Shown in pieces: positions 7,342 through 51,933 of a stretch of 64,000 nucleotides of DNA (within the stretch, counting starts at the first letter, position 1; each line of letters begins with the position of its first letter). The stretch spans positions 480,001 through 544,000 of the forward strand of contig CAWJGT010000034.1 of assembly GCA_963842525.1 (NCBI GenBank). Reading direction: 5' to 3'. This DNA comes from an uncultured Holophagales bacterium. GTDB lineage: Bacteria; Acidobacteriota; Thermoanaerobaculia; Multivoradales; UBA5704. Position numbers and translations under genes: made by a program. The notes under the pieces are model-generated. The model was given only the letters and a program-made list of their open reading frames with translations, had not been told where the DNA came from and did not search any database.

Positions 7342-9108
7342 ATGGCCGAGCCTCGCACCGTGGAGCCCGAGGTCGCCCCACCTCCCTCCCTGGATGAGAC
7401 TATCGCTCATCCTCCCCCTCCTGCTCCAATGCCAGCCTCCTCCGGCCCCATCCCCGGTTTCGAGATGCTGCCGGACGTGGCGCCTCACGGGCTCGTCCGG
7501 CGCCTGATCACGACCTTCCGGCACCTGTTCGGCCTGGCGTTCGGTGCCCTGGCGGCGCGCGTCCGCGAACGGAACGCCGCGGAGGCCCGCCAGCGGAAGC
7601 GGGGGCTCCGTCTCTTCTTCGCCTTCGAACGCCTCCTCGCCTGGGTCGTGCGGCCGTTCCTCGACAAGTCGATCGTGGACCGCCCGTTCCCGGTCCAGCT
7701 CCGGCGACGGCTCGAGATCCTGGGCCCGACGTACATCAAGCTCGGCCAGGTCCTGGCCCTGCGCCAGGACATCCTGCCGGAGTCGGTCACCGAGGAGCTC
7801 AAGAACCTGCTCGACCGGCTGCCGGTCGTCCCCTTCGACCGCTATCTCGGGCTCATCGAGGCCGATCTGGAACGGCCCGCCGGCGAGATGTATTCATGGA
7901 TCGACCCCATTCCCACCGGCTCGGCCTCGATCGCGCAGATCCACCGGGCCACCACCCGCGAGGGAGATTCGGTGATCCTCAAGGTGGTCAAGCCGGGGAT
8001 CAAGGAGACCCTGCGGCGCGACGCCATCCTGCTGCGCATCCTCGGCTCGATGCTGCAGGTCATCCTGCCCCGCTACCGGCCGAAGCAGATGATCCGCGAG
8101 TTCGTGGAGTACACCTGGCGCGAGGTGGACCTGCGGCGCGAGGCCGACAACGCCGAGACCTTCACCGCCAACTTCCACGACCTGCCGGACGTTGTCTTTC
8201 CCCGCATCTACCGGAAGTACAGCGGCCACAGCGTCCTGACCATGGAGTTCCTGGCGGGCTACAAGCCGAGCGCTCCCGAAGCCCTGGCGCTCACCGACGC
8301 GGAGCGCGACCGCCTGGTCTATCTCGGCGCCGCGAGCATCATCCGGATGCTCTTCAAGGACGGCTTCTTCCACGCCGACCTGCATCCGGGCAACCTGCTG
8401 ATCCTGCCCGGACCGAAGCTGGGGTTCATCGACCTCGGTATGGTCGGCCGGTTCGACAGCAACCTGCGGCGGACCTTCCTCTACTACTACTACACGCTGG
8501 TCATGGGGGACGCCGAGGGCGCGGCCCGCTACCTGGCCGCGCTGTCCACGCCGGGTCCGGGCGCCGATCCGGCCGGGTTCCGCCGCGAGGTCACCGAGAT
8601 CCTGCAGCGCTGGCACCGGAGCAGCGCCGACTTCCGGGACTTCTCGCTGGCTCAGCTCATCCTGCGCTCGGTCAACCTCGGCGCCCAGCACCGGATGTAC
8701 TTCCCCGTCGAGATGGTCCTCATGGTGAAGGCCCTGGTGACCTTCGAGGGGGTAGGCCGCATCCTGAAGCCCGGCATGGACGTGGCCGTCGTTTCGCAGG
8801 AGCACGCCAGCGCCATCTTCAAGGACCAGTTCAACCCGCAGAACCTGTTCCGGCAGGTCCTCCGCGGCATGCCGGAGGTCCTCGAGGCCCTGGCCAAAGC
8901 GCCAAACCTGATCACCGAGGGGCTGCGCATGATCGAGTCGGCCACCCGGCGGCCGGAGAACCCGCTCGCCGGCCTGCGCGGCACGCTCTTCGGCGGCTTC
9001 TGCATGGTCGCCGGCGCGATCCTCGCCGGCGCCGGCGGTCCCTGGCCGGTCTGGGCCATCCTCTTCGCCGTCGGCATCGGCGCGGCGCTTCACCGGTCGG
9101 ACCGGTGA
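7342..9108 (+). CDS. ABC1/AarF/UbiB family atypical protein kinase
   Basis: LGPTYIKLGQ, SASIAQIHRA, KVVKP, FFHADLHPGN and DLGMVG motifs; C-terminal TM hairpin. Confidence 0.9.
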   Translation: MAEPRTVEPEVAPPPSLDETIAHPPPPAPMPASSGPIPGFEMLPDVAPHGLVRRLITTFRHLFGLAFGALAARVRERNAAEARQRKRGLRLFFAFERLLAWVVRPFLDKSIVDRPFPVQLRRRLEILGPTYIKLGQVLALRQDILPESVTEELKNLLDRLPVVPFDRYLGLIEADLERPAGEMYSWIDPIPTGSASIAQIHRATTREGDSVILKVVKPGIKETLRRDAILLRILGSMLQVILPRYRPKQMIREFVEYTWREVDLRREADNAETFTANFHDLPDVVFPRIYRKYSGHSVLTMEFLAGYKPSAPEALALTDAERDRLVYLGAASIIRMLFKDGFFHADLHPGNLLILPGPKLGFIDLGMVGRFDSNLRRTFLYYYYTLVMGDAEGAARYLAALSTPGPGADPAGFRREVTEILQRWHRSSADFRDFSLAQLILRSVNLGAQHRMYFPVEMVLMVKALVTFEGVGRILKPGMDVAVVSQEHASAIFKDQFNPQNLFRQVLRGMPEVLEALAKAPNLITEGLRMIESATRRPENPLAGLRGTLFGGFCMVAGAILAGAGGPWPVWAILFAVGIGAALHRSDR

Positions 9109-9305
9109 GGGTCCTCGGCGTCGTGGTCAAGATCGAGAGCGACCAAGCGCTCGTCGTGCCGAGCGATCAGCTCGGGCAGCTCCTCTGCAACCTGCTCCCG
9201 GACCTTGCGATACTTCGCGGCTTCCTCAGGGGAGAGCCGACGATTGAGGTTGATACGCCGAAGGGTCATCGTCTTCTCTACCGGCCGTTGTTCCTTTCTC
9301 GCCAT
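9090..9305 (-). CDS. Small hypothetical protein, possibly a truncated antitoxin/HTH N-terminus
   Basis: RRLSPEEAAKYRKVREQVAEELPELIARH resembles, from memory, leaders of XRE-type regulators; no HTH follows. Confidence 0.4.
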   Translation of the reverse strand: MARKEQRPVEKTMTLRRINLNRRLSPEEAAKYRKVREQVAEELPELIARHDERLVALDLDHDAEDPHRSDR

Positions 9306-17110: not shown

Positions 17111-18036
17111 AAGCTCCCCTTCTGGGATTCGAGACAGCGCTGCAGCGCTGCGATCAGGGCCGGGCCACGGTCGAGCGGGAGCTGCGGCAGCTCGTAGCGG
17201 GGACCTCGCCAGTCGCTCTCCAGACGGGCGAGCTCGCGCTCATTGAGGAGCCGGCGGCGGCGCCAGAGGGCCACCAGCTCGTTGTCCCGCCCCTCTTCCT
17301 CCGCGACCGGCGCCGGCGGCGCCGGAGGATACAGGCCGTTGATGACCAGCACCTCGGGCTCGCGGCCGACCTGCCGCCGCAGCGCCTCGCGCAGCTCCAG
17401 GACCTCCTGGACGGGCATCTCCTCGGCCAGCGTGACGGCCACGATGCCGCAGCGCTCCGGGTCGGCCACAAATAAGGACAGCTCTCCGGCCATCTCCGCA
17501 AAGGGGCCGTTGTGGACGACGTCGGCGACGAGCTGCGGGGCGGCGAGGAGCCGCACGCCGTGTCCGGTGGCCGGAGCGTCGAGCACGATCTGATCGAATC
17601 GGGGCGCGCCGCCCCGCTCCAGGCCGTGCAGCAGGCGCCAGGCATGGCCCAGGATGGCCATCTCGGTGAGGCCGGGCGCACTCTCGGAGAAGTGCTGATA
17701 GATCGGGCTGGCGAGGACCCGCCGCGACAGCAGCTCGAGCTTGAGCCGGTCGCGCACGATCTCGTCCAGCACCTGGCGCGGTTTGAGGTTCTGCAGCCAG
17801 AGCCGCGGCCCGGCGGCGACGATCTCGCCGCCGGACGGCGGGATCCCGAGCATCTGGTGGAGGTTCTCGCGCGGGTCCACCTCGACGACCAGGACGCGCC
17901 GGCCGGCTGCGGCGAGCCTCTGGCCGAGGACGGCCGAGACGGCGGTCTTGCCGACCCCGCCTTTCCCGGTGACCACCAGGAGCTGGCGCCGTGCGAGCTT
18001 GTCGATCGGAGTAATCTGAGCCATGGCAGAAGGCAT
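17107..18036 (-). CDS. ArsA/Get3-like ATPase (partner subunit)
   Basis: [15 protein letters not shown] and LAEEMPV motifs; 4-nt overlap with the next gene; the start may be 18024. Confidence 0.88.
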
Positions 18037-18077
18037 GACTATACTTTTCCTCCATGCCGCGGTAAAACCGCTCCGCC

Positions 18078-19064
18078 ATGAGCTTCCCAGCGACCCGACT
18101 CCGCCGTTTCCGCAAGACCCCCGGCCTGCGCCGCCTGGTCCGCGAGACCCGGCTCTCGCCGGACAACCTGGGCCTGCCGCTCTTCGTCTGCCCGGGCGAG
18201 GGCGTGGCCAATCCGGTGCCGTCCATGCCCGGCGTCTTCCAGCAGTCGGTCGACCAGGTGGTCGAGACCTGCCGCCAGACCCTGGCCGAGGGGGTGCAGA
18301 CCGTCATCCTGTTCGGCCTTCCCGAGTCGAAGGACGAGGCCGGCTCGTCCTCCTGGTCGCCGGACGGCATCGTCCAGCGCGCCATGCGGGCGCTCTCCGC
18401 CGAGGTCCCGGGGCTGATCAAGATCGCCGACGTCTGCTTCTGCGAGTACACGAGCCACGGCCACTGCGGCGTGCTCGACGGCGAGACGGTCGACAACGAC
18501 GCGACCCTCGCCAACCTGGCTCGCCAGGCCGTGTCGCTCGCCGAGGCCGGAGCGGACATCATTGCCCCGTCGGACATGATGGACGGCCGGGTGGGCACCA
18601 TCCGCGAGGCCCTGGACGCAGCGGGCTTCGAGGACACGCCGATCCTTTCCTATGCGGTCAAGTTCGCGAGCGGTTTCTACGGCCCGTTCCGCGAGGCTGC
18701 CGGATCAACGCCGTCGTTCGGGGACCGCCGCTCGTACCAGATGGACCCGGCGAACAGCCGCGAGGCAATGCGCGAAGCCGAGCTCGACATCGAGGAGGGA
18801 GCGGACATGCTGATGGTCAAGCCGGCCCTCCCCTACCTGGACATCCTCGCCGAGCTGCGCTGGCGCCACGACCTGCCGCTGGCCGCCTACCACGTGAGCG
18901 GCGAGTACGCCATGCTCAAGGCAGCGGCCGAGCGCGGCTGGATCGACTACAACCGCGTGATGATGGAGTCGCTCGTCGCCATCCGCAGGGCGGGCGCCGA
19001 CCTGATCCTCACCTACACCGCGCGGGACGCGGCGCGGCTGCTGGCGTCGGGATGGGCCGAGTGA
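18078..19064 (+). CDS. hemB: Porphobilinogen synthase (Zn-type)
   Basis: [31 protein letters not shown] and MVKP motifs. Confidence 0.97.
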
Positions 19065-19069
19065 GCCCG

Positions 19070-20345
19070 ATGAGCCTGATGGAACGTGCCGAGCAGGTGC
19101 TGCCCGGCGGGGTCAATTCCCCGGTCCGCGCCTTCCGCGGCGTCGGCGGGACGCCGGTCTTCGTGCGCTCCGCTTCGGGGGCATACCTCGAAGGGGAGGA
19201 CGGCCGCCGGTACATCGACTACATCGGCGGCTATGGGCCGCACATCCTCGGCCATCGCCATCCCGCAATCGTGGCGGCGATCCAGGAGGCCCTGGGCCGC
19301 GGCACCGCCTTCGGCGCGCCGACCTTGCCCGAGGTCGAGCTGGCCGAGGCGATCGTCGCGGCCCTCCCGGCGGTCGAGATGGTGCGGCTGGTCAATTCGG
19401 GCACCGAGGCCACCATGTCGGCCCTGCGCCTGGCCCGCGCCGCAACCGGGCGCGACAAGCTCCTCAAGTTCGAAGGGTGCTACCACGGCCACGCCGACCC
19501 CTTCCTGATCGCCGCCGGCTCCGGGGCCGCCACGATCGGCGTCCCCTCCTCGCCCGGCGTGCCCGGCTGCGGTCACGGCCGACACCCTGCTCGCGCCCTA
19601 CAACGACCTGGCCGCGGTCGAGCGGCATTTCGACGAACGCGGCGCCGAGATCGCCGCCGTCATCGTCGAGCCGATCGCTGGCAACATGAGCCTCGTGCCG
19701 CCGGTCCCCGGGTTCCTGGAAGGGCTGCGCGCGCTCTGCGACCGGCACGGCTCGCTGCTGATCCTCGATGAGGTGATGACCGGCTTCCGCGTCGCCTGGG
19801 GTGGCGCCCAGAACATTCTCGACATCCGCCCCGATCTCACTACCTTGGGCAAGGTGATCGGCGGCGGGCTCCCCCTCGCTGCCTACGCGGGACCGCGCGA
19901 CCTGATGCGCCAGATCGCCCCGGCCGGCCCCGTCTACCAGGCTGGCACCCTCTCGGGCAACCCGCTGGCCGTGGCCGCCGGCCGGGCGGCCCTGACTGTG
20001 CTGGGCCAGGACGAGGACTGCCCGTATGAAAAACTGGAGCGCACAGGTGCGCGCCTGCAAGGGGGGATCGAGGAAGCGGCCCGCCGGCGCGGTATCCCGC
20101 TGCGGATCGAGCGCCAGGGCTCCATGCTCGGACTCTTCTTCACCGACCAGCCGGTGCGCAGCCTGGAGGACGTCCACGCCACCGACCGCCAGCGTTTCAC
20201 CCGGGTCTTCCACCGCCTGCTCTCCCAGGGCGTGCACCTGCCCCCCTCGGCCTACGAGGCGCTCTTCCTCTCGACCGCGCACGGGGACGCCGAGATCGAC
20301 GCCACGGTCGAGGCCTTCGACCACGCTCTTGCCGAGGAGGGCTGA
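19070..20345 (+). CDS. hemL: Glutamate-1-semialdehyde 2,1-aminomutase, +1 frameshift near 19565
   Basis: [19 protein letters not shown] and GCYHGH in one frame; [15 protein letters not shown] and [10 protein letters not shown] in the next. Confidence 0.93.
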
Positions 20346-20365
20346 CGGCTAAATACCGACCGCCA

Positions 20366-20393
20366 TTGAGCCAAGGCACGGCTTCGGTATAAT
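20366..20393 (+). promoter_or_regulatory. Sigma70-like promoter for the ferredoxin
   Basis: TTGAGC-16 nt-TATAAT upstream of the GGAGG RBS. Confidence 0.55.
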
Positions 20394-20452
20394 GCCGCGC
20401 ATGGCAGGGGGAGTACCAACATTCGAGCTCGCGGCCAAAGGAGGGGCCTGGT

Positions 20453-20707
20453 ATGACGCACATCATTGCTGAACCCTGCGTGGGCGTGAAAGACACCGCC
20501 TGCGTGGATGTCTGTCCGGTCGATTGCATCTACGGCAAGGACGAGGACTGGGAAATGCTCTACATCCATCCGGAAGAGTGCATCGATTGCGGCCTGTGCG
20601 TCGACGCCTGTCCGGTCGAAGCGATCTATCCGCTGGAAGAAGTCCCCGACAAGTGGAAAGAGTACATCGCGAAGAACTACGAGCACTTCGGGTTCACCCC
20701 TCCGTAG
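20453..20707 (+). CDS. fdxA: Dicluster (7Fe/8Fe) ferredoxin
   Basis: CVGVKDTACVDVCPVDC and CIDCGLCVDACP motifs. Confidence 0.92.
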   Translation: MTHIIAEPCVGVKDTACVDVCPVDCIYGKDEDWEMLYIHPEECIDCGLCVDACPVEAIYPLEEVPDKWKEYIAKNYEHFGFTPP

Positions 20708-20765
20708 CCCGCCAGCGAGCCACACCCCGCCGGAGCACTGCATGCCTCCGGCGGGGAGACGCGAC

Positions 20766-21010
20766 CTACTTCAACCCCATCTCCTCGATCGACTGTACCG
20801 CGAAGACCTTCTCTGCCAGCTCGGTCAGTCGGTCCATGGAGCTGATCTTCTCCACCTTCTTCTTCTCCCTGGCGCACGGCCCGCTCGTGCGCGGCCTCCT
20901 GATGCGCCTCGGCGAGAACGACCACGCCGTGCTCTTCTCGTTCCACCACATCATCTTCGACGGCTGGTCGGTCGGCGTCTTCGTGCGCGAGCTGTCCGCC
21001 CTCTACCGGG
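20766..21010. pseudogene. Two abutting gene remnants: a C-terminus of an Rpn/DUF4351-like protein (-) and an NRPS condensation-domain fragment (+)
   Basis: Minus strand KKKVEKISSMDRLTELAEKVFAVQSIEEMGLK; plus strand PLVRGLLMRLGENDHAVLFSFHHIIFDGWSVGVFVRELSALY. Confidence 0.6.
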
Positions 21011-21094
21011 CGCGGAGATCGACCCCCGCGGCAGCAGCAGGCGCCGATCGCTTGGCTAAGCTCGCGCCCGGCAGTGCGTCTCATGGAGGTCTCT

Positions 21095-23491
21095 ATGTCG
21101 ATCACCCAGGATGTTGCGTATTCCTTGCGGCTCATGCGCAAGGCCCCGCTCTTCACCGCAGCCGTGGTGCTGACCATTGGCCTGGCCATCGCCGCCACCG
21201 CCACCATCTTCAGCGTGGTGAATGCCCAGATGTTGCGGCCGCTGCCCTTCAAAGATCCGGACCGGCTGCTGTTGGTCTTCGAGAAGAACGACAAGCTGAA
21301 CGCGCCGGTGTACAACGTCTCGGTACTGAACTTTCTCGACTGGCGGGCACAGACGCAAAGCTTCGACCTCGCCGCGGTCAATCCCAACAACTACATCCTC
21401 ACCGGCATGGGTGACCCCGAGCAGCTTGCCGGCAACCGCATCAGCCCGGAGCTGCCGCGCGTTCTCGGGGTCCATCTGATCGCGGGAAGGCCGTTCACCC
21501 CCGAGGAAGAGAAACCCGGCGCGGCACCGGTCGCCATCATCGGAGAGGCGTTCTGGCAACGCCACTTCGGCAAGGACGCCAACGCCCTGGGCCGCACCAT
21601 CAACCTCGACGGCACCGCCACCACCATCGTTGGCATCGCCCCTGCCACTCTGAACCTCATGGCGCCCGGAGATATCTACACCCCGTTGACCATCGACCCT
21701 GCCAAGGAGATGCGCCTGAGCCACGCCATATTTGTAGTCGGAAGGCTCAAGTCTGGCGTTTCCGTCCAGCAGGCGCAGGCGGAGATGAACACCATCTCCG
21801 ACAGAATGAAGGAGCAATATCCGGAGCTGCGCGATTGGGGCGTGAATCTGGTCAGCATGTTCGATGCGTTCATCAGCCCGCAGCTCAAGACCGGATTGCT
21901 GGTGCTGCTGGCCGCCGTCAGCTTCGTGCTGCTCATCGCCTGCGCTAACATCGCCAATCTTCTGCTGGCGAGGACCGCGGCCCGGCAACACGAGATGGCG
22001 GTGCGCACGGCGTTAGGCGCCAGCCAGGGCCGGCTGGTGCGCCAACTCCTGATAGAAAGCGTGACGCTCTCCTGCAGCGGAGGTCTTGCCGGACTGCTGG
22101 CGACCTGGTGGTCGGTACGCGCCATGAACTACCGGCTCCCGCCGAACACGCTGCCCATCCCCACGATCGAAGTGGATTCCCATGTTCTGTTGTTTGCGCT
22201 GGGGACTACGGTGCTGACCGGGCTCATCTTCGGCATCGTGCCTGCCCTGCGTACGGCGAAGGTGAAGGTAGATGAAGTGCTCAAGACCGGTGGACGCGGC
22301 GGCTCCGGCGGCATTCGCACGCGCATGCGCAACACCCTGGTGGCGATCGAGCTGGCTCTTGCGACGGTGCTGCTGATCGGAGCGGGCCTGTTCATCCAGA
22401 CCCTAGTCAATCTGCAGAGTGTGAAGCTCGGCTTCGAACCGCACGGCCTCATCAGTTTTCAAGTGTCGCTTCCTCCGGGCAAGTATCCCGACAAGACGGG
22501 GGCGCCCTTGTTCTTCCGCGAGATGATCGAATCATTGGAAGCGCTGCCGGGCGTGCGCAGTGCGTCGGTCTCGAGCGGCATCCCGTTTGGCGCCGGCGCG
22601 TATTACAGCCACCCGATGATGGCGACCGAAAACTCCATCCTTCCGCCCGACGCCAAGGTCCCCGTCGATTGGCGCATCGTGAACCCCGGATACTTCAAGA
22701 CCATGAACATCCCGTTGCTGCGAGGCCGCGAGTTCGAGTACTCCGACGCGAGCACTCCCAACATCATCATCGTGAGCCAGGCCACCGCCCGCACCTTCTG
22801 GGGAGACGAAAATCCACTCGGACGCACCCTTCGCCGCTCGGCCGACCCCGACACTCCCTTCACTGTGGTCGGCGTGGTCGGTGACGTGCGCAGCACCCAA
22901 CTGAGTCAGGAGTCACCTGCCTTCTACTACTCCATCACCACGCGGACCATGCCGTTGATGGACGTCGTGGTGCGGACAGACGCGTCTCCGGAATCACTGC
23001 TGCCCGCCATCCGCAAGCGGATCAAGGCGCTCGACCCTGACCTGCCGATGGCCAACGTGAACACCATGGAGCAATGGCTCACGACCGGCGCCGCGCAGCC
23101 GCGGCTGACCAGCATCTTGCTCAGCATCTTTGCCGGGGTCGCGCTGCTCATTGCTGCGATCGGGATCTATGCTGTGCTCACCTACTCCGTCAGCCAGCGT
23201 ACGCGCGAGATCGGCGTCCGCATGGCACTGGGCGCAACGCCGCGCCGCGTCCTGGAATTGATCGTCTCGGAGGGCATGCGCGTCGCGCTGCTGGGCCTGG
23301 TGATCGGATTGGCCGGCGGACTCGCCTTAGGTCGCACGGTGCAGAGCCTTGTGTATGGCGTTGGAGTGCGCGATCCAAAGATCTACTTAGAGGTAGCAGC
23401 GATCCTGACGGCGGTAGCGCTCGCGGCTTGCTTCATCCCCGCCCGGCGGGCTGCTGTTGTCGATCCCATAGTGGCTTTGCGGGAGGAATGA
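21095..23491 (+). CDS. ADOP-type (duplicated MacB/FtsX) ABC permease
   Basis: QDVAYSLRLMRKAP, LLIACANIANLLLAR, EMAVRTALGA and QRTREIGVRMALGA motifs; ends DPIVALREE; no ATPase gene adjacent. Confidence 0.92.
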   Translation: MSITQDVAYSLRLMRKAPLFTAAVVLTIGLAIAATATIFSVVNAQMLRPLPFKDPDRLLLVFEKNDKLNAPVYNVSVLNFLDWRAQTQSFDLAAVNPNNYILTGMGDPEQLAGNRISPELPRVLGVHLIAGRPFTPEEEKPGAAPVAIIGEAFWQRHFGKDANALGRTINLDGTATTIVGIAPATLNLMAPGDIYTPLTIDPAKEMRLSHAIFVVGRLKSGVSVQQAQAEMNTISDRMKEQYPELRDWGVNLVSMFDAFISPQLKTGLLVLLAAVSFVLLIACANIANLLLARTAARQHEMAVRTALGASQGRLVRQLLIESVTLSCSGGLAGLLATWWSVRAMNYRLPPNTLPIPTIEVDSHVLLFALGTTVLTGLIFGIVPALRTAKVKVDEVLKTGGRGGSGGIRTRMRNTLVAIELALATVLLIGAGLFIQTLVNLQSVKLGFEPHGLISFQVSLPPGKYPDKTGAPLFFREMIESLEALPGVRSASVSSGIPFGAGAYYSHPMMATENSILPPDAKVPVDWRIVNPGYFKTMNIPLLRGREFEYSDASTPNIIIVSQATARTFWGDENPLGRTLRRSADPDTPFTVVGVVGDVRSTQLSQESPAFYYSITTRTMPLMDVVVRTDASPESLLPAIRKRIKALDPDLPMANVNTMEQWLTTGAAQPRLTSILLSIFAGVALLIAAIGIYAVLTYSVSQRTREIGVRMALGATPRRVLELIVSEGMRVALLGLVIGLAGGLALGRTVQSLVYGVGVRDPKIYLEVAAILTAVALAACFIPARRAAVVDPIVALREE

Positions 23492-23695
23492 GACATCAAA
23501 CGCCGGCGGCACTCTTGCTCCTGGGTACATGCGGCACCCAGCGGCTCACCCGCCGGCAATAGTCCTGATATTCAGCTCCGACCGGTCCCGACGCGATGGA
23601 CTCAGATCGAGCGGAACCAACTCCGTCAAGCGCCAGGAAGCCGCGTCCGGCCGCTACGAACCCCAAAAGGTCGAAAGCCCCTGCAAAAACTGCAA

Positions 23696-25510
23696 CTATT
23701 GCCACGTCTTCACCTGCGACAATCGCTTCTCGATCACCTCGACGAGGTTTCCGTCGGGATCGAGGCAATGGAACGAGAGTTCACCCCACGGAAGCGCCAC
23801 GATGGGATGAACAGGTCCACCGAGCGAAGACACGCGCGCATGCGCCGCGTGGATATCGCTGACATGCAATTCAACACGGTTCCTGCGATTCGCGAGCTCG
23901 GGCACCACGAGCCTTCCCGAAAGCTCTATAGCCGTCTGCGCATCTACCAGGGAGAGCGCGCCGAACTGCACGAAGCGGCTGCTCTTCCTCGTATGCGTGA
24001 GCCCAAGCCGTTCATAGAACGACGCCGACGTCGCGAGGTGCGAGACCGTAAGCTTCACACCTCCGGCGCGCACGTCGAGCTTCTCCTCGGCCCGAGGCGT
24101 CGACTGCTTGGGAGGAGGCTCCGAAGGTCGTCGCTGGGCGGCCTCCTGTGCCATCTCTTCCTTCGACATCCTTCCGATCTTCGTGACGTACAGGGTCTGC
24201 CCGTCTGACGTCGCTAGCTGCCATCCCGCTGCCGTGATGGACGGCGTCGCAGGCGTGAGCTTATAGGGCTCTACGACACGGGCGCGGCGTGTCCCTCCGA
24301 ACTCAAGTTCTCCCTCATACCCTCCGACAAGTCTCTCTATGATGTTTTCGAGGGCTTTAGGGGTGACAGCCGGATGCTCCGGCGTCGCGGCTTCTGCGGG
24401 CTGGCGGGCGGCGAGTTGGTTCGCCATCTTCCGCAAGTACTCGCTGTCCTGTACACCGGCCCATTCTGGAGCCAGCAAGTCAGCCCCTCCTAGCGCTCCA
24501 ACGAGGCCGCCCGTCATGGCAGCGATCGTGTCCGTGTCTGAACCCAGGGCGAACGCTGCGCGCAACACGCCTTGAGTGGGCTGCGTCGCGTATCGCGCGG
24601 CGAGATAGATCGCGGCGGCGGCGCTGATGGTGCCGGAGCCCTTGTCGCGACTGAACGTGCCCATCCGCTCCAGAACAGCATCGTCATTGGCGAGGACTCC
24701 CTCCTCCAGGCCTTTCAGGCCGAAATGGAGCAGTTGCCGCATTTCTTCGACGACCGCAGCCCAGCGCTCCTCGTAGTCTTGGAGGGCGTTGTCCCCGGCT
24801 TCGAGCCACCCGTTCTTGGTCGAGGACGCGACAGGCGGCAGACCCCAGGTGGACGAAGTTTCCAGGAGGACAGTCAGGAGCTCGCCAAACCCTACCGTGT
24901 GCTGCGCGCGCAGGAGCCACCAAGCTGCGTACGCGTAGGCAGCGGCGCCAACGAGCGCACGAGGATGACCGTGCGTGGCCGCGCCGTCCACGACGACATC
25001 CTTCTGCATCGCGGCGGGTTCGTCGGCTTCAGCGTGGAGGACAGCATGCGGAAGTACGCGCATTGCCACGCCGTTCCCGCCCGCCTCGAAGTACCGCCTC
25101 ACGGCCTCTGCATCCGACTGCTTCCACGGGGCCAGGCCGCGCAGCCAGCTTGCCGCTGCGCGCTTCGTTGCACCTCCACCACCCCGCTCGTAGAGCGTCC
25201 ACAGCGGCAACTCGTTCCTCGTGAAATGCTGCCACCATGAAGAGCCAGCGGTGAGGCGCGAGCGGGCAATCGCCAACGTGAGCTGCGTGTCGTCGCTGTA
25301 CTCGCCCGCTCGGATGATCTCGGTGTGCGGGTAGAACCGCCCGCCTCCACGCCGCTCCCAGTCACGAAACGAAGCGGTGGGTTGTACGCGGTGCCTCCGG
25401 TTGACGAACTCTTGCGGCCAGCCGAGTGCATCACCTGCGGCGAGGGCGGTGAACGCCCCTTCGACACGGGCTCTGGCGACCGGCGGTCGCTGTTCCTTGC
25501 CGCTGGTCAT
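23696..25510 (-). CDS. ADP-ribosylglycohydrolase (DraG/ARH family) fused to a C-terminal VOC/glyoxalase domain
   Basis: AGDALG, YSDDTQ, GNGVAMR, THGH and SDTDTIAAMTG motifs; C-terminal LTVSHL..SASFY...PWG...DPDGNLVEV. Confidence 0.88.
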   Translation of the reverse strand: MTSGKEQRPPVARARVEGAFTALAAGDALGWPQEFVNRRHRVQPTASFRDWERRGGGRFYPHTEIIRAGEYSDDTQLTLAIARSRLTAGSSWWQHFTRNELPLWTLYERGGGGATKRAAASWLRGLAPWKQSDAEAVRRYFEAGGNGVAMRVLPHAVLHAEADEPAAMQKDVVVDGAATHGHPRALVGAAAYAYAAWWLLRAQHTVGFGELLTVLLETSSTWGLPPVASSTKNGWLEAGDNALQDYEERWAAVVEEMRQLLHFGLKGLEEGVLANDDAVLERMGTFSRDKGSGTISAAAAIYLAARYATQPTQGVLRAAFALGSDTDTIAAMTGGLVGALGGADLLAPEWAGVQDSEYLRKMANQLAARQPAEAATPEHPAVTPKALENIIERLVGGYEGELEFGGTRRARVVEPYKLTPATPSITAAGWQLATSDGQTLYVTKIGRMSKEEMAQEAAQRRPSEPPPKQSTPRAEEKLDVRAGGVKLTVSHLATSASFYERLGLTHTRKSSRFVQFGALSLVDAQTAIELSGRLVVPELANRRNRVELHVSDIHAAHARVSSLGGPVHPIVALPWGELSFHCLDPDGNLVEVIEKRLSQVKTWQ

Positions 25511-26208
25511 AGCGGACCTCCAGGGTGAAACAGCGTCTCATGTGGAACCATGCCGCGACGGAGCTGGGTGCTGAGCTGATCGGGCCTGAAGAAATCGGGG
25601 GCGACGAAGATCGGCGGGATGACCGCTCTCATCAACTTCAACCGCGAGATCTCGCGTTTTGCCTGGGACTCGTCAGCAACGGCTACCCCCAGGATGTCCT
25701 CGCGAGAAACGCGGTCGGGGATAAGGATTTCAGCCTGCTCGTCCGTGGGGAGCCACGAGGGGTGGTTCGGGGTGCGGTTGAAGACCCGGCCGTACGCGCC
25801 CGGCACCTCGGACCTGAACATAGAATCGAATGCGTCCCCGCCCTCTGCGACCCCGGCTCCTCTGTTTGCCGCAGCGTTGCGCTCGGAGAACTTCGTTCCC
25901 GGCGCCCACAGGTGGTCGGGTTTGATGAACAGCACGACCCAGTCGGCAAACAGGTTCTCGTTGTTCCGCGCGGTCCTGAAGTACCAAGCATTCGGGTACT
26001 GAATCGAGCAGCAGACGTGGTCAGGGAACCCGTCGTACCGCACGATGTCGGTGGCATTGAACACGGCCTTCTCATCCGTCCGCAGGCGCGCGGTGGACAG
26101 AATGCCGTTGGGGTCGGAAACGATGTGCAGCAGGTTTCGAGACGGCGTGAAGTGGCAGAGCCGGGTGATTTGCCGCGTCGTGACCTTTTCGCGAATCAGC
26201 CCCGTCAT
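25507..26208 (-). CDS. darT: DarT-family (DUF4433) DNA ADP-ribosyltransferase
   Basis: LCHFTxxxNL..I, RYD, FSERNAA and DEQAEILIP (catalytic Glu). Confidence 0.85.
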   Translation of the reverse strand: MTGLIREKVTTRQITRLCHFTPSRNLLHIVSDPNGILSTARLRTDEKAVFNATDIVRYDGFPDHVCCSIQYPNAWYFRTARNNENLFADWVVLFIKPDHLWAPGTKFSERNAAANRGAGVAEGGDAFDSMFRSEVPGAYGRVFNRTPNHPSWLPTDEQAEILIPDRVSREDILGVAVADESQAKREISRLKLMRAVIPPIFVAPDFFRPDQLSTQLRRGMVPHETLFHPGGPL

Positions 26209-27590
26209 CGCGAGCTCCTTTGCAGGAGACCAGCATCGGCGGGCACGAGTGCGGAGGGAGCGCCGGTGTGCGTGAGAACGAGGTCCGACTTCGCGCGTGT
26301 CACGGCGACGTAGAGGAGCTTCGCGTTGCTTGCCGCTGCATCATTGGCACCGAACGCCTCGACATCAGGCGGGTGCGGCAGACGCGCGGACGAAGCGAAG
26401 GGAACGATGACCGCGTTGAACTCTAGCCCCTTCGCCGCGTGATACGTGCCATAGAACACCCGGGGACCATTCGGCCAGCGTCCTAGCTCACGGTGAAGGC
26501 GCGTTGCGGAAATGCGTAACCGCTTCTCAAGCTCTCGATCACGAAAGAGCACCGCGACCGTTCCCTTCTTCGCGTACTGCTGCGCCAGCTCCTCGACGAA
26601 GCGCATCTCCGCGTCTTCGGAGCTGAACCCTACGAGCGCAGGGAGCGGGCCATCAGCCCGTACGGAGTTCGGTTCGATGAGATCTGCAACTCCTCGATAG
26701 AAGGGCGAGCGAGCGAGCGCGAGGGCGAGCTGCGCGATCTGCTTCGAGTTGCGGTAGTTCTCCTCGAACCTCCACACGTTCGCGACGTTGAGCCCCGCGC
26801 TACGCCACGAGATCTTATGACCATAGATCTGCTGTGCCATGTCGCCGAAGAACGTCAGGCTACCGTCTGGGGGAATTGCAGCAGCGAGCGACTGTAGCAT
26901 CACCGGCGAGAAGTCCTGTCCCTCATCGATAATTACGTGCTTGTAGAACCGCTGACTGCTGTCACTCGCGAACTCAGATACGACGGTCTGCGCGAGGTCG
27001 TCCCAGTCATAGGGCTTGCCGGCAGCGATGCGAAGCTCTCGGTGGTGCTGATACGTGGTGAAGAGCACGGGACGACTCGCCCTCGGCACGCGAGAGCCTT
27101 CCCGCCCATCGTTCTCGGCCTCCAAATAGTCGTCGACGCTCGTGATCCAGTTCTGCGAGAGCCAGCGAAACTCCTCCGCGATGAAGCCGATGGGACGGTC
27201 TAGGACCGCGTCCGTCGCTCCGGTCGCCTTCACGGCATCGACGGCGGTTTGTGCGTACGCCTCAGCGGTATCGCCATCGGCGATCGCTTTCCACGACATT
27301 TTCCCGCGCCGGTCCAAGTAGCCACGGGCGAAGTGGTGGTAGTTGCGCACGTCGACTTGGCCGAGCCCGGCGCCAAGGGATTGCAGGTACGCCACGAGGC
27401 ACTTGTTGAAGGTAACCAGCAGCGTTCGCCCGCCGTGATCGGTATCGGAATCCGCGAGGAACGCTGCTCGATGGATCGCGAGCGTGGTCTTGCCGCTCCC
27501 GGCAGTTCCGAGTACGACGATGTGCCCCGATGGGGGCAGTGCCAACACCTCTCTCTGTCGGCCAATAGGCGTCGGCAGCTTCGAAGTCAT
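26205..27590 (-). CDS. UvrD/Rep-like superfamily 1 helicase
   Basis: GTAGSGKT, IIDEGQD, GDMAQQIY, NYRN, AKGLEF and YVAVTRA motifs. Confidence 0.9.
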   Translation of the reverse strand: MTSKLPTPIGRQREVLALPPSGHIVVLGTAGSGKTTLAIHRAAFLADSDTDHGGRTLLVTFNKCLVAYLQSLGAGLGQVDVRNYHHFARGYLDRRGKMSWKAIADGDTAEAYAQTAVDAVKATGATDAVLDRPIGFIAEEFRWLSQNWITSVDDYLEAENDGREGSRVPRASRPVLFTTYQHHRELRIAAGKPYDWDDLAQTVVSEFASDSSQRFYKHVIIDEGQDFSPVMLQSLAAAIPPDGSLTFFGDMAQQIYGHKISWRSAGLNVANVWRFEENYRNSKQIAQLALALARSPFYRGVADLIEPNSVRADGPLPALVGFSSEDAEMRFVEELAQQYAKKGTVAVLFRDRELEKRLRISATRLHRELGRWPNGPRVFYGTYHAAKGLEFNAVIVPFASSARLPHPPDVEAFGANDAAASNAKLLYVAVTRAKSDLVLTHTGAPSALVPADAGLLQRSSR

Positions 27591-27729
27591 TTCAGCCTCC
27601 CAAGACCTTCATCGCGGCGGCATTCCGGTGCCCGCCACGCTGCCCATTGAGCATAGCTCCGGCAAGTTGGTTGAGTCGACCAGGTACTACCGCCTGAATG
27701 CATACCTTCCGGGGACAGCGGTCTAAGCC

Positions 27730-27755
27730 CGGTTCAAATCCGATCGTCGGCTCCA
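27730..27755 (+). mobile_element. tRNA 3'-end fragment (att-like site, possibly from tRNA-Thr)
   Basis: CGG-TTCAAAT-CCGAT-CGTCGGC-T-CCA gives a T-loop, 3' T-stem, acceptor strand and CCA; no 5' half upstream. Confidence 0.65.
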
Positions 27756-27780
27756 GCTCAAGTCCTTTCCTTCCAACAAC

Positions 27781-28569
27781 TTACTTTGCACCGGTCCCCC
27801 CGCTCGGCGCATCGCAGCAAGCCTCGCAAGCGAGAAAGAAGAGCGACTTCCGGATCGATCTCTGCGCGCTCCACTCTCGATGGTCCCAGCTCTCGCCTCC
27901 GACGTTGTCTCCCGCATAGAGGAGCTGGGCCACGAGGACGTTGCGGAAGTCGCCGACGGCGAAGAGCGCGGCGGCCTCCATCTCCACGACGATCGCCCCC
28001 TCGGCCCGCCTCGCCTGGATCTTGGAACGCGTCTCGCGGAAGATGGCGTCGGTCGTCCAGGTCTTGCCGAACAGGTACGGATGGCCCTGGCTCTCGAGCA
28101 CCTCACGGAGGATCTCGAGACCGAGGGGATTCGCCGCCACCTCGCGTCCAGGCGGGAGGTAGTGATACGAGGTGCCCTCGTCACGAATCGCGGCAGTTGG
28201 AACGATGATCTGCCCCAATGGGATCGCCGGATCGAGCACCCCTGCGCCGCCGCAAGCGATGACCACTCTGGCGCCATGAGCGATCGCCCCCTCGAGCAGA
28301 CCCGCAGCCAAGGGCGCCCCGGAGCCCGCATGAAAGATAGCGATGCGGCGCTTGCGATAGGTGATCTCATAGATGGGGTGCTGCCCCATCTCGCTCCGCT
28401 GCGCGGTCAGCGGAACCAGGTTGTCGCGCAGGACGATGTCGTCTATGACGTCCTTGAAGAAACACGCCACCGCCAATTCCGGGATCGAGACCGATGTGAT
28501 CGTGCCGTGGGGCTCGATCAGCGCCGACCTCTCCGGATCGAATTCAAGGAGGGGGAAGTCGTGGGTCAT
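27781..28569 (-). CDS. Nucleoside (uridine/purine) phosphorylase family protein
   Basis: GSGAP, CGGAG, RDEGTSYHY, WTTDAIFRET and VEMEAAA motifs. Confidence 0.9.
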   Translation of the reverse strand: MTHDFPLLEFDPERSALIEPHGTITSVSIPELAVACFFKDVIDDIVLRDNLVPLTAQRSEMGQHPIYEITYRKRRIAIFHAGSGAPLAAGLLEGAIAHGARVVIACGGAGVLDPAIPLGQIIVPTAAIRDEGTSYHYLPPGREVAANPLGLEILREVLESQGHPYLFGKTWTTDAIFRETRSKIQARRAEGAIVVEMEAAALFAVGDFRNVLVAQLLYAGDNVGGESWDHREWSAQRSIRKSLFFLACEACCDAPSGGTGAK

Positions 28570-28570
28570 G

Positions 28571-41309
<12,739 letters not shown>

Positions 41310-41313
<4 letters not shown>

Positions 41314-42350
41314 GAGCGGGCCTCCAGGGCCACCGGCCCGAAGGCGGCCGGCGGGCCGGCCAGAGCCCTCGGCACCGCGGCGAGCGAACGTTCGATACAG
41401 GAGCGGAGGCGATCCGCCAGGCCGGCGACCGCGGGGGGCATCAGCAGGGAGTAGTGGTCTACAGCTATTTCATGAACCTCGACGGGCTCGCCGGCGAGCG
41501 ACGACCAGCCGTTCGTGGGCTCCGGGGATGTCCGAAGGCGGAAGAGGATCAGGCGGTCGCCGCCGGGCCCGGGCCGGTAGGCGGCGATGGCACGCACGTT
41601 GGCGCGGTAGACGTCGAGGATCGGCCGGACCTGCGCCAAGCGCACGCTGGCCCGGAGCAGGCCGGCCTCGTGCGCCCGGGCGAGGAGCCAGTCGAGGGCC
41701 GCCGCCTCGTCCATCCCCGCCGGCTCCCCATCGAGCCAGGAGGCGTCCAGCCCCTGGAGCCCCGCCTGGTCGCGCAGGTAGAGGCGGACGATGTCGTCCT
41801 CGCGCGCGGCCGCGGGCAGCGGCACGATCCCGGGCGCCCAGGCGTCGAGGAGCGCCACGAGCGCCACCGGCCGGCCGCGCTGCCGCATCTGGCGCGCCAT
41901 CTCGAACGCCACGACGCCGCCGAACGACCAGCCGCCCAGCAGGTAGGGGCCGTGCGGCGCGGCGGCCTCGACCGCGGCGGCGTACTGGGCGGCCATCGCC
42001 GGCAGGTCGTCGACCGCGTGCCCTCCCGCGAGGCCTGCCGCCTGGATGCCATAGAACGGCTGCTCCCCGCCCAGCCGGAGGGCGAGATCGCGATAGGAGA
42101 GCACCGCGCCGCCGATGGCGTGAACGCAGAAGAACGGCGGCCTCCCGGCGGCCACCGCGGCGGCCGCCGGGCGCTCCGGCTGCAGGTCGACGAGGAGCGA
42201 TGGCTCGCGCCGGGCGCCGGGCGGCGCGCCGCCGGAGACGGCCTCGCCACGGATGCGCTTGGCGAGGAGCTTCCGCTTGGCGGCCGAGAGGGATTCCAGG
42301 CCCCGGGCGCGATGCTCGGGGGTGAGATCGGTGGTCAGGGGGGATTTCAT
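41310..42350 (-). CDS. Standalone thioesterase with N-terminal docking-like helix
   Basis: FFCVHAIGG, GGWSFGG and DHYSLL motifs; N-terminal LSAAKRKLLAKRIRG. Confidence 0.9.
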
Positions 42351-42440
42351 CTCGCTTTTAAAATCTTTAAACCTTACGCGAAAAACACAAAGTCTCCACG
42401 GCCCCCCGCGTGAGGTCAGTATATAGAAGTGCGACGGAGG
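42323..42440 (-). promoter_or_regulatory. NRPS operon promoter/leader, copy 1
   Basis: Nearly identical to 62698-62815; -10 TATACT followed by a G-U-rich hairpin and the MKSPL start. Confidence 0.75.
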
Positions 42441-42624
42441 GCTTGGGCGTGGACAGCTCCTTGGAGTGCCTGACAAAACCGGCGTCGCCAGTTCTTGTAG
42501 GGGCGGGGTCTGGGGGGGGCGGAAGGTGGAGCGACCCGCCCTCGGCGTGAGATTCCAAAGGGGCTCCCCTCCTCCTCAGGGTCCCGTCAAAGTCGTCGGG
42601 GTCGGAGCTTTCCCCCGCCCAAAG

Positions 42625-46078: not shown

Positions 46079-47575
46079 ATGAAGCGATTGCTTGAACTTT
46101 CCAGCGCAGAAGCCAGGAAACACTTCCTTAAGGCGAGCAGTTACTTCAAAGACGACCTGCCCTCCTATTTAAGTTTCGAGCCGATCCTGAACTCGGTGGA
46201 CGCCGCGCTTAATGGGGCAACGTACGCGGCAGTCCAAGCTCACTGTCCGAGCAACTTCCCGGGCGTCAACTACAGTTTCATGGCGAACAAGGACGGAAGA
46301 CTTGCATGGCGTCCCTATGAGCTGATTCATCCGGTCATCTATGTGTCTCTGGTAGATGTCATCTGCCAGCCGGAGAACTGGAAGCTGATTACTGATCGTC
46401 TATCCGAGTTCACCAAAGGCGTTGTTGACTGCTGCAGCGCCCCTGTGATGTCGCTCGACCACCAGAAGGATGTCGCAGCCCAGGTGAGGGGATGGTGGCA
46501 TAAAGTTGAGCAGCGATCTCTGGCTTACTCGTTGGAGTTTAGTCATGTCCTACAAACCGATGTGGTCGATTGCTACGGTTCGGTTTATACGCACAGCATT
46601 TCTTGGGCGCTACATGGACTACCCTACACCAAGGAGAACAAGCAGAAGAAATCTCTTGTTGGAAACAAGATCGACTCGCACATTCAGGCGAGTAGGTACG
46701 GCCAGACCAACGGTATCTGCCAAGGCTCCGTCCTCATGGACTTCGTTGCCGAAATCGTGCTGGGGTATGTGGACGAACTGATCAGCGCAGAAGTGCCGAA
46801 AGCGAACGATTTCCGGATCCTCCGCCACCGGGACGACTACCGAGTGTTTGCCAACAATGACGATCGCGCTGAAGGCATCCTTAAAATTATCAGTGACAAG
46901 CTGCGGATCGTAGGGATGAAGCTTGGAGTATCGAAGACGTTCCTGAGCAGGAACGTTGTTGAGGGATCGATCAAGGCGGACAAGCTGGCAGGCATCGAGT
47001 TGCAGGACCTTGGCGACGCGAATGCCAAGACCATTCAGAAGCAACTCCTGAGACTGCATGCGTTCGGGCAGCGGTTCCCCAATAGTGGCGCGTTGCGGCG
47101 CCTGGTTGCCGAACTGCATACCAGCATTACTGCGCAGACTGAAGCGCCAGACGATCTCGAAGTGCAGGTCGCAATCGCAACAGACATCGGCTTCGTCTCT
47201 CCGGCAACATTTCCTGCTGTTGCGGGCATTCTGAGTCATCTGATCTCGCTCGCCCCACAAGACAAGAAGTCTGTGCTCTGGTCAAAAGTGCGCAATAAGA
47301 TGGCTCGAGTCCCATACAACGGCTACCTGGAGATATGGCTTCAACGGGTGACGCAGCCAAAGGCAGTTGGGATCCAGTTTGATAGCACTGAGGCGATCTG
47401 TCGGATCGTGAATGGTGAAGCGGTCGATCTATGGGAGAACGGATGGATTGCATGCAAGAATGTCAAGGCGGCGGTCGATCCTTCAAAAATCGTGGTCGGG
47501 TCCGTGGAAGATGTTACTGAGGTCGTTCAGCCTGCGGAGGTCGAGCTATTTCAGCAGAATGCATGGGCATACTAA
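46079..47575 (+). CDS. UG/Abi-type defence-associated reverse transcriptase (DRT9/UG28-like)
   Basis: KDGRLAWRP, TDVVDCYGSVYTHSISWA, GQTNGICQGS and LRHRDDY motifs; 498 aa; visibly more AT-rich than the host genes. Confidence 0.85.
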   Translation: MKRLLELSSAEARKHFLKASSYFKDDLPSYLSFEPILNSVDAALNGATYAAVQAHCPSNFPGVNYSFMANKDGRLAWRPYELIHPVIYVSLVDVICQPENWKLITDRLSEFTKGVVDCCSAPVMSLDHQKDVAAQVRGWWHKVEQRSLAYSLEFSHVLQTDVVDCYGSVYTHSISWALHGLPYTKENKQKKSLVGNKIDSHIQASRYGQTNGICQGSVLMDFVAEIVLGYVDELISAEVPKANDFRILRHRDDYRVFANNDDRAEGILKIISDKLRIVGMKLGVSKTFLSRNVVEGSIKADKLAGIELQDLGDANAKTIQKQLLRLHAFGQRFPNSGALRRLVAELHTSITAQTEAPDDLEVQVAIATDIGFVSPATFPAVAGILSHLISLAPQDKKSVLWSKVRNKMARVPYNGYLEIWLQRVTQPKAVGIQFDSTEAICRIVNGEAVDLWENGWIACKNVKAAVDPSKIVVGSVEDVTEVVQPAEVELFQQNAWAY

Positions 47576-48330
47576 GAGCGCCTAACAAAACCGGCCCAAC
47601 GGGCCGGGAGAGCATAGCCCAGGGCTGAGGCCGAAGGCCGATGCCCTGGGTTCACGGGCGCCACCTCCCGGCGGCCTGAAAGGCCGCGAGAGTCTTCAGT
47701 CCCACACGTAGCGCTCGTCAAATTCGATTTCATAAGCCTTGAGGAACGCACGGAGCTCCTCTTGAAACGACTTGACTCGATGATGCTCGCGCTGGTTGCG
47801 GATGTAGGCTCGAACGTCTTCGACCTGCGATTGGCTCACCGAGAATGCACCGAATCCCGCCTGCCAAAAGAAGCTCGCAAACTGCGGGCCTCGGCCCCGA
47901 AGCCAGTCGTTCGAGCTTTTCTTGAGGTGGCCGACAACGTCGCTCAGCGCCTCGGTCCGTGCGAGGAGAAACAGACCGTGCAAATGGTCGGGCTCGGTGT
48001 TGATTTCGATCGGGAGACAGCCGAGGCCTTTGAGCGTGCCGCCCATATAGGCATGGAGATCGGGGCGAATCTCGGCAGGCAGGGTTCGTTCGCGTTCCTT
48101 CGTCGAGAAAATGAGATGGACGTAGATTTTGGAGAGGGATTGAGCCATGGCGCCGGTGACTCCAGCACCTGTCTGCGGATCTGTCAAGGATCTGTCAAGC
48201 GGGGAGCTCTCGCGGCCTTTCAGGCCGCCCGGAGGTGGTGCCCATTGACCCAGGGCATCGGCCTTCGGCCTCAGCCCTGGGCTAGATTCTCCCGGCCCGT
48301 TGGGCCGGCAACCGGTTTTGTTAGGCGCTC
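47576..48330 (-). mobile_element. IR-bounded Y1 transposase element, copy 1
   Basis: GAGCGCCTAACAAAACCGG...CCGGTTTTGTTAGGCGCTC ends and ~100 bp inverted REP-like arms around tnpA. Confidence 0.85.
47696..48148 (-). CDS. tnpA: IS200/RAYT-like Y1 HUH transposase
   Basis: HLIFSTK, DHLH, WQAGFGAFSVS and YIRNQ motifs. Confidence 0.92.
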   Translation of the reverse strand: MAQSLSKIYVHLIFSTKERERTLPAEIRPDLHAYMGGTLKGLGCLPIEINTEPDHLHGLFLLARTEALSDVVGHLKKSSNDWLRGRGPQFASFFWQAGFGAFSVSQSQVEDVRAYIRNQREHHRVKSFQEELRAFLKAYEIEFDERYVWD

Positions 48331-48669
48331 TTAGCTACTGTCGGTCCGCCACGATCAAATCGCGGGAAGGCCACGCCGTAAGGTAGCTGATGATCGATGT
48401 CTCCAAGTACACAAGAGCAGCCAAGCTCCGAGACCACCACCTCGAAAGAGCTACGGCGCCGGTTCCAACACCCATGGGTTAGAGCGCCTAAAAAATCCGG
48501 CCCAACGGGCCGGGAGAGCATAGCCCAGGGCTTCTATGTGGGCCACCGGTGTCAAGCGTCTCGGGGTGGTGGTTCGTCGTTTTCCCTTTCCTGGCCCCCC
48601 CTCCTGTCACCGGTTTTCTCGCTTCTTGGTTCTCAGTCCGTCTGGCGCTTGCCCGGAGTGTGCAGGGAC

Positions 48670-48835: not shown

Positions 48836-48864
48836 CGTTTCTCTCCGAGCTTTTTCCTCCCAGA

Positions 48865-51903: not shown

Positions 51904-51933
51904 GCGGCAGGGGAGCCATGATAGATTCCAAGT

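Follow-up and report, generated by a model that had tools for sequence, protein, structure and literature searches.

The closest described relative of the system discussed here is DarHTG (Liu-DS3), a combination of DarH, DarT and DarG3 that was published in Nucleic Acids Research in April 2026 (PMC13069673). As described in that paper, DarH is a UvrD-like helicase without a 2B domain, and DarG3 is little like the two known DarG types, resembling instead archaeal and eukaryotic ADP-ribosylglycohydrolases (ARHs). The system protects Escherichia coli against T4, T5, T7 and SSL_2009a with a behavior like that of abortive infection, and this defense requires both the active site of DarT and the ATP-binding site of DarH. 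Helicase mutants are reported to be viable and defenseless, mutants of DarG3 could not be constructed, and the system is described as commonest in Thermodesulfobacteriota and Bacteroidota. A cassette of the same architecture is present in a 64,000-nucleotide stretch of DNA, here called the window, from an uncultured Holophagales bacterium of the phylum Acidobacteriota (assembly GCA_963842525.1, contig CAWJGT010000034.1, positions 480,001 to 544,000 of the forward strand). Its three genes are named darH, darT and darG3 below.

As in DarHTG, the helicase, DarT and an ARH-like antitoxin are encoded in one operon in the window, where the genes overlap by 4 nt and match the UvrD, DarT and ADP_ribosyl_GH families of Pfam. 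Also as in DarHTG, the window DarG3 is ARH-like by Foldseek and Pfam, being neither a macrodomain nor a NADAR protein. The active-site residues of DarT are intact in the window, and so are the ATP-binding residues of DarH. The cassette is very probably a toxin-antitoxin defense of the DarHTG type, in which DarT modifies single-stranded DNA (ssDNA), probably at guanine, DarG3 restrains DarT enzymatically and perhaps by binding, and DarH gives a needed ATP-dependent step. An original prediction, made from the letters of this DNA, had put the cassette forward as a candidate new DarT defense system. This novelty is not borne out, since a system of the same architecture had been published (PMC13069673). 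What the prediction proposed about its working, namely a DarT toxin with an ARH-type eraser replacing NADAR or a macrodomain and with the helicase as a working part, is supported by the defense that DarHTG confers on E. coli. Its more specific ideas, in which the ARH would take ADP-ribose off DNA and the helicase would provide ssDNA or detect replication, stand as predictions. As to whether the architecture is already listed, it is in the literature (PMC13069673) but not in PADLOC-DB 2.0.0 of 2023, where none of the 5027 models matches DarG3 and the DarT model matches the window protein at 2.5e-6. A literature search for helicase-DarT-ARH systems found no description besides PMC13069673. An apparent "DarG3" in bioRxiv 10.1101/2023.12.14.571748 was rejected, as it consists of citation superscripts (DarG followed by 30-32) and is not a name.

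Organization of the operon

The three genes lie on the minus strand (Table 1). Along that strand, consecutive genes share ATGA stop/start overlaps of 4 nt at 26208-26205 and 25510-25507, and the Shine-Dalgarno-like sequences AAGGAG and GGAGG are found a few bases upstream of these two junctions. The overlaps that had been predicted are present in both the list of open reading frames (ORFs) and the minus-strand sequence, and the three genes are translationally coupled. The motifs named at that time for the helicase, for DarT (HFT and QAE) and for the ARH (DD and DTD) are likewise all present and are invariant in the alignments of relatives, so that the earlier observation of the three-gene operon is confirmed as written. 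The same is true of the lack of both known antitoxin types: Pfam finds neither a macrodomain nor a NADAR domain in the three cassette proteins or in the 25 neighboring ORFs that were scanned.

Around the cassette, no promoter-like site was found, and the one terminator-like site lies inside darT on the opposite strand. A sequence search for direct or inverted repeats flanking the cassette gave short matches at chance level alone. Contigs from a rhizosphere RNA library, 95-99% alike, cover positions 24016-27616, including both gene junctions. This is a weak sign that the genes are transcribed as one unit, given that DNA carry-over is possible.

Table 1. Positions in the window of the cassette genes, the domains of DarG3 and associated features.
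Feature	Position	Strand	Description or evidence
darH	26205..27590	minus	ATG ORF, 461 aa; UvrD/Rep-like superfamily 1 (SF1) helicase/ATPase, no room for 2B domain
darT	25507..26208	minus	ATG ORF, 233 aa; DarT1-like ssDNA ADP-ribosyltransferase, predicted toxin
darG3	23696..25510	minus	ATG ORF, 604 aa; candidate antitoxin, three domains: ARH, middle and VOC
ARH domain of DarG3, residues 18-344	24479..25459	minus	Pfam PF03747, Foldseek, invariant acidic residues
Middle domain of DarG3, residues 384-460	24131..24361	minus	AlphaFold2 (AF2) model and conservation; small alpha/beta
VOC/glyoxalase-like C-terminal domain of DarG3, residues 485-592	23735..24058	minus	Pfam PF00903, AF2 model
Mobile cassette extent	23702..27605		Limits of DNA similarity to another genome (L001)
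Shine-Dalgarno-like GGGAGG ahead of the darH start codon	27596..27601	minus	Read from the sequence

Conservation of the triad

With DarT as the sole query, 42 loci were retrieved from a set with one genome for each prokaryotic species, and they were then checked by tblastn with the three window proteins. The prediction had called for a check of the gene order, and this order is indeed conserved: helicase, DarT and ARH genes follow one another on the same strand in 39 of the 42 loci. The exceptions are a locus with DarT and ARH alone (L038), one where DarT sits at a contig end (L041) and one with no match at 1e-5 (L042). Since order and strand are kept so widely, the arrangement is not due to chance. 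When all ORFs of at least 100 aa from 40 loci and the window were clustered, the three cassette families were the only real ones present in at least 39 sources. Further clusters, found in 7-32 sources, are shadow frames of the same three genes, at the same coordinates in other frames or strands.

The hosts of the triad belong to Myxococcota, Acidobacteriota, Latescibacterota, Gamma- and Alphaproteobacteria, Cyanobacteriota, Chloroflexota, Spirochaetota, Lentisphaerota and Bacteroidota. One host is archaeal, a Nitrosopumilaceae metagenome-assembled genome (MAG) with 50-59% identity (L035); the match to its DarT falls into two parts, residues 1-169 and 150-230, so that the frame may be broken. 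Plasmids carry the triad too, namely a megaplasmid of Ralstonia and a plasmid of Streptomyces. On these, the first gene bears the annotation DNA helicase or "3'-5' exonuclease", the second is called hypothetical or DarT, and the third is called hypothetical or ADP-ribosylglycohydrolase. In L006, a second full helicase gene and a partial DarT gene (2585-4419) lie directly upstream of a complete triad, which suggests a tandem duplication.

Not all copies are whole. In 33 of the 39 triads, the helicase frame stays open for 443 codons or more; in the other six it is broken or shortened (L002, L021, L023), split by transposases (L028, L032) or partly deleted (L036). Such damage, together with the loss of the DarT N-terminus in L036 and L038, is what might lead one to see the cassette as an inactive and decaying remnant. 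This is extremely improbable for the window copy, as its three frames are open, every catalytic motif is intact and the ratios of nonsynonymous to synonymous substitution (dN/dS) against the copy in a Kofleriaceae MAG (L001) are 0.14 for DarH, 0.30 for DarT and 0.20 for DarG3. Values in this range indicate that all three genes are under purifying selection.

In two of the loci mentioned above, the damage is limited to the helicase. A Mutator-family transposase (7.8e-129) splits it at 3687-5020 of L028, and a DDE_Tnp_1 transposase (4.1e-28) does so at 3507-4902 of L032, the genome of which is unrelated to that of L028; the DarT and ARH genes are intact in both. These helicase-only insertions fit the published helicase mutants, which are viable but defenseless.

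Fused forms of neighboring genes are also present in databases. For instance, UvrD is joined to DarT in P0216 (689 aa), DarT to UvrD_C in P0158 (789 aa), and DarT to ARH in P0269, P0218 and P0230. The DarT-ARH and UvrD-DarT fusions could be read-through calls across the 4-nt overlaps. This does not apply to P0158, because its domain order is the opposite, with DarT preceding UvrD_C.

The DarH helicase

DarH matches the UvrD-helicase (1.5e-13), UvrD_C (6.6e-17) and AAA_19 families of Pfam. The helicase motifs G31-S-G-K-T-T36, D222-E-x-Q-D226, Y279-R-N281, K387-G and T431-R432 are invariant in a 23-row alignment. With 461 aa, the protein resembles UvrD-family helicases without the 2B domain, as described for the DarH of DarHTG. 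Its best sequence match in the PDB is HelD (4e-14), and the PADLOC models that it matches are GajB and NERD+UvrD.

The DarT toxin and its predicted target

DarT scores 69.3 bits (4.9e-19) with PF14487, for which the cut-off is 22.5. Its residues 18-207 align with all but the last of the 201 profile positions (1-200), and H19-F-T and Q158-A-E160 are invariant in a 26-row alignment. The sole related solved structure is that of DarT1 from E. coli C7 (8baq), which is matched at 4.3e-21 with the single sequence and at 3.2e-34 with the 26-row profile; no other solved chain, including any of the DarT2 type, matches this profile at E<=10. In DarT1, E152, N104, R52 and M71 are reported to be essential and D54 to act in proton transfer, and N104, which corresponds to a histidine in DarT2, coordinates the target base (Schuller et al. 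2023, PMC11543638). The window residues E160, N111, R57 and D59 align to E152, N104, R52 and D54, respectively, and are identical to them and invariant in the 26 rows. In addition, a related DarT from a Vibrio plasmid (31% identity) is paired with a DarT1-associated NADAR (PF22397, 2.4e-87), a case that serves as a control for NADAR detection. Among 1.84 billion cluster representatives, 1807 are relatives of this DarT at E<=1e-3, a number that falls to 520 at E<=1e-10 and to 89 at E<=1e-30.

From the DarT1-like match, the kept residues and the NADAR-paired relative, the predicted product is ADP-ribose on guanine N2 in ssDNA, and the window DarT most likely belongs with the guanine-modifying DarT1 enzymes. 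It is distinctly unlikely that the target is another one, such as thymine, RNA or protein, and that an ARH was recruited for a linkage unlike that of DarT1. Such a shift would go along with the switch of antitoxin class from NADAR to ARH, the tyrosine in place of M71, the low identity to DarT1 and a conserved stretch of some 50 residues at the C-terminus, which the 208-residue DarT1 chain lacks. Nevertheless, the base-coordinating residue is an asparagine, as in DarT1 (N104), and not a histidine, as in DarT2; this asparagine and the equivalents of R52, D54 and E152 are kept without variation, and no structure of the DarT2 type was matched up to the limit given above.

DarG3, a three-part candidate antitoxin

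In the AF2 model of DarG3 (mean predicted local distance difference test, pLDDT, 83.2), three folded parts are separated by low-confidence linkers. The first is the ARH domain, which matches ADP_ribosyl_GH (PF03747) at 1.2e-40. Its residues D73-D74-T75, D325-T326-D327 and E34 are invariant in a 22-row alignment and are presumably metal-binding, as are their counterparts in DraG and ARH3. In a Foldseek search with the whole model, MJ1187 (1t5j) is the top match (7.5e-10, target TM-score 0.77), followed by human ARH3, Tri1 (6dre) and DraG; the E values of MJ1187 and ARH3 range from 7.5e-10 to 1e-9. By sequence, the best matches of the domain are DraG and Tri1, with scores that are far under the family cut-offs (56 bits against 337 for DraG and 41 bits against 490 for Tri1).

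If the product of DarT is the predicted guanine-N2 adduct, the ARH domain would therefore have to cleave that adduct. Cleavage of this kind seems chemically reasonable, in that guanine N2 is part of a guanidine-like group and thus near the arginine adducts of DraG and Tri1. In Table 1 of PMC12945103, NADARs alone are listed for guanine adducts, and ARH3 is listed for phosphate-linked ends alone. A tentative extension, possible though doubtful, is that DarG3 would be the first ARH-fold enzyme to remove ADP-ribose from a DNA base (guanine N2), with the middle domain and an interchangeable C-terminal module forming a switch for the release of DarT.

The middle domain is modeled as a helix (384-395), four strands (401-447) and a further helix (450-459) at a pLDDT of 84-92. 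It matches no Pfam family, and a query of the ESM Atlas with residues 378-462 gave no usable match. All related loci keep this domain, and two of its residues, G437 and Q438, do not vary in the 22 rows and are present in 100% of 98 homologues. A conserved domain that is not catalytic might be taken to mean that DarG3 neutralizes DarT mainly by binding, as a type II antitoxin does, and that the ARH domain serves substrates such as modified DarT or DarH or free ADP-ribose derivatives instead of repairing DNA. The characterized ARH enzymes act on proteins or small molecules, and the nearest by sequence, DraG and Tri1, have been named above; Tri1 is reported to act by both binding and hydrolysis. 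The macrodomain DarG is also reported to act in both ways (PMC12170906), and the table cited above has no ARH for base-linked adducts (PMC12945103). Still, this view of DarG3 is unlikely. The metal-site and glutamate residues are invariant in 22 diverse rows, so that ARH catalysis is under selection, and the partner enzymes of DarTG1 and DarTG2 are reported to reverse the DNA adduct (PMC11543638, PMC12945103).

The third part varies between lineages. In the window it is a VOC domain, which matches Glyoxalase (PF00903) at 8.2e-7 (29.9 bits against a cut-off of 20.6) and shows beta-alpha-beta-beta-beta elements in the model. VOC enzymes are built of paired beta-alpha-beta-beta-beta modules with a metal site of histidine and glutamate residues. 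In 98 VOC-bearing homologues, the first-strand position, that of a metal-binding histidine in the enzymes, is lysine in 91%, and E591 is kept in 97%. Besides the window protein, 8 of the 39 related DarG3 proteins that were scanned have the VOC domain. Among the 120 best database relatives, 81 have a recorded VOC match and at least 17 others align over at least 98% of the query length with no such record. Most of the remaining loci have a short tail instead, and some have no tail at all; winged-helix-like matches to this tail are weak, are found in 2 of 19 proteins and are under the cut-offs in both.

A DarT tree of 26 rows was built without 17 DarT-bearing loci whose starts are unclear or whose frames are broken. 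In it, the systems with the short tail group together in a single supported, derived clade of 15, and those with VOC, the window's included, are early-branching. Thus, the VOC domain is perhaps the older state. As a swappable accessory module, it is more likely to regulate or sense than to catalyze. In the Calothrix locus (L037), a separate gene for a single-domain glyoxalase (8871-9272, minus strand; 8.3e-17) is found downstream of the gene for the VOC-fused DarG3, at a distance of about 355 nt.

Proposed mechanism

In an uninfected cell, DarG3 would keep DarT in check. DarT would use NAD+ to place ADP-ribose on bases of ssDNA, most likely at guanine N2, and the Mg- or Mn-dependent ARH domain of DarG3 would strip off the adduct, with the middle domain perhaps also binding DarT directly. 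Infection would tip this balance: DarH, using ATP on phage or replicating DNA, would expose or mark the ssDNA substrate, and the ADP-ribosylated DNA would then block phage replication and transcription. The C-terminal VOC domain would be an exchangeable accessory to this cycle.

Several points weigh against this reading. The window cassette is assigned to the DarHTG type by architecture and fold. A glycine in the ARH domain aligns to D97 of DraG, an important position. Among the five residues reported as essential in DarT1, four are kept, and the position of M71 is occupied by Y76, which is conserved in the family. The match of the PADLOC DarT model is weak, as its E value given above indicates. 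Catalysis by the VOC domain is doubtful because the first-strand position is mostly a lysine rather than a metal-binding histidine. Table 1 of PMC12945103 contains no ARH-fold enzyme that removes base-linked ADP-ribose. Lastly, there is no recognizable defense island around the cassette in this genome.

With regard to E. coli, no DarT was found in strain K-12, and the most distant triad, from a Bacteroidales genome (L040), gave no match by blastn against 20,395 E. coli records.

Mobility and genomic setting

The cassette is patchily distributed. DarT is present in 2 of 61 related genomes, the window's own included, and in none of the five other genomes of the same genus that were searched. The best named relatives of the window copy, which resides in a high-GC genome, are from Kofleriaceae and Sorangium, and the DarT tree mixes phyla freely. 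When positions 18000-32000 were compared by blastn with the Kofleriaceae MAG, a single match was obtained, from 27605 to 23702, with 90.7% identity over 3904 nt and with unmatched flanks; similarly, a metagenome contig (X1) turns unlike the window at 23695. The GC content is 62-65% over about 20.0-28.5 kb and 70-78% on either side. By these comparisons of sequence, the cassette is a unit of 3.9 kb that moves as such and was acquired by horizontal transfer. Pieces nearly identical to it are found in 20 of 24 listed sequencing runs, from 17 studies of soil, rhizosphere and sediment. At 27616-27801, contigs X5 and X1, which come from two runs and are otherwise 95-99% alike, lack 171-177 nt of the spacer that separates the helicase start from the adjacent PNP-like gene. 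Hence, the position of the cassette is unchanged in close relatives, but the spacer is shorter.

The neighbors of the cassette in the window, a MacB-type permease, a PNP_UDP_1 phosphorylase and a nonribosomal peptide synthetase (NRPS) cluster, have no PADLOC match. The phosphorylase and the permease were considered as parts of the system and rejected, given that the DNA match with L001 does not extend past the three genes and the loci have no fourth gene in common. Such a setting could suggest that the cassette serves mainly for selfish addiction or growth control, like mycobacterial DarTG, and that phage defense is not its role in this host. DarTG is reported to regulate replication in bacteria of the Mycobacterium tuberculosis complex (PMC12170906), and the two loci with a transposase-cut helicase and intact DarT and DarG3 genes indicate that a toxin-antitoxin pair can persist alone. 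This role is nevertheless quite improbable, as the same architecture defends E. coli (PMC13069673), the distribution is patchy and horizontal, with phyla mixed in the DarT tree, and many related loci sit among defense genes. For instance, the cassette is accompanied by type I restriction-modification (R-M) subunits, a Piwi-domain protein and a DpnII-type nuclease in L003, by an MrfA-like helicase, a PD-(D/E)XK nuclease and an HD protein in L004, by an Eco57I/MmeI-like methyltransferase and Schlafen AlbA_2 in L007 and L020, and by an E1-E2-JAB protein in L018.

The methyltransferase of L007 (732-4574) and L020 (1086-4604) is an Eco57I/MmeI-type protein of 1170-1280 aa that stops exactly at the start of the helicase gene, and its family is found in 11 loci. 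It may be a neighboring type IIG-like R-M enzyme or a fourth component in that clade.

Further features of the window lie outside the cassette. The NRPS cluster (28571-42476, minus strand), with adenylation, carrier and condensation domains and a thioesterase, has a GC content of 74-78% and begins directly beyond the PNP-like gene that adjoins the cassette. Where the GC content drops, at 19686-20345 on the plus strand, there is a class-III aminotransferase ORF that covers profile positions 206-403 of 403 only, its front half being missing or in another frame. The nearest defense gene, about 18.5 kb from the cassette, encodes an AbiP2-type reverse transcriptase (46079-47572, plus strand; PADLOC 7.1e-185, full length). 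Beside it, at 47696-52410, are three IS200-like transposase ORFs, an IS110-family transposase and a short AbiEii-like ORF, and the AbiP2 region is taken as a second mobile or defense patch of the window.

Implications

As the design has been published, the window does not add a new kind of defense; its value is in what the wider family shows. The main text of PMC13069673 does not contain the words glyoxalase, VOC, guanosine or DarT1, and the DarT1-like nature of DarT, the three-part DarG3 with its swappable C-terminus and the fusion proteins are additions beyond that text. Because the helicase-linked DarT most likely belongs with the guanine-modifying DarT1, an ARH-fold enzyme apparently takes the place of NADAR as the eraser of a base adduct, which, if confirmed, would widen the chemistry of the ARH superfamily. 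The last part of DarG3, exchanged between lineages, marks a likely regulatory or sensing element. Finally, the fusions and the loss of the helicase alone to transposons give hints as to which parts cooperate and which are dispensable for restraint of the toxin.

Comparison with known systems

Beyond DarHTG, the window system shares features with several described families. With DarTG1 it has in common the toxin-antitoxin logic and the ssDNA substrate, and its DarT is nearest to DarT1. It differs from DarTG1, where DarG1 is a NADAR protein, in the ARH fold of its eraser, the extra helicase, the C-terminal tail of DarT and the tyrosine in place of M71. DarTG2 also relies on reversible ADP-ribosylation of DNA bases, and the enzymatic and DarT-binding domains of its DarG are paralleled by the ARH and middle domains of DarG3. 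By contrast with DarTG2, the window system has no macrodomain, its DarT matches no DarT2-type structure at E<=10 and the base-coordinating residue is an asparagine instead of a histidine.

In DraT-DraG and Tre1-Tri1, an ADP-ribosyltransferase is paired with an ARH-fold eraser, as in the window, although these systems modify protein, at arginine, and have no helicase. The SF1 UvrD-like core of DarH is common to GajB of Gabija and to HelD, but DarH scores far under the cut-offs of both families. Unlike in Gabija, there is no GajA partner beside DarH and, unlike HelD, DarH, with only 461 aa, lacks the HelD-specific N-terminal and clamp-opening domains.

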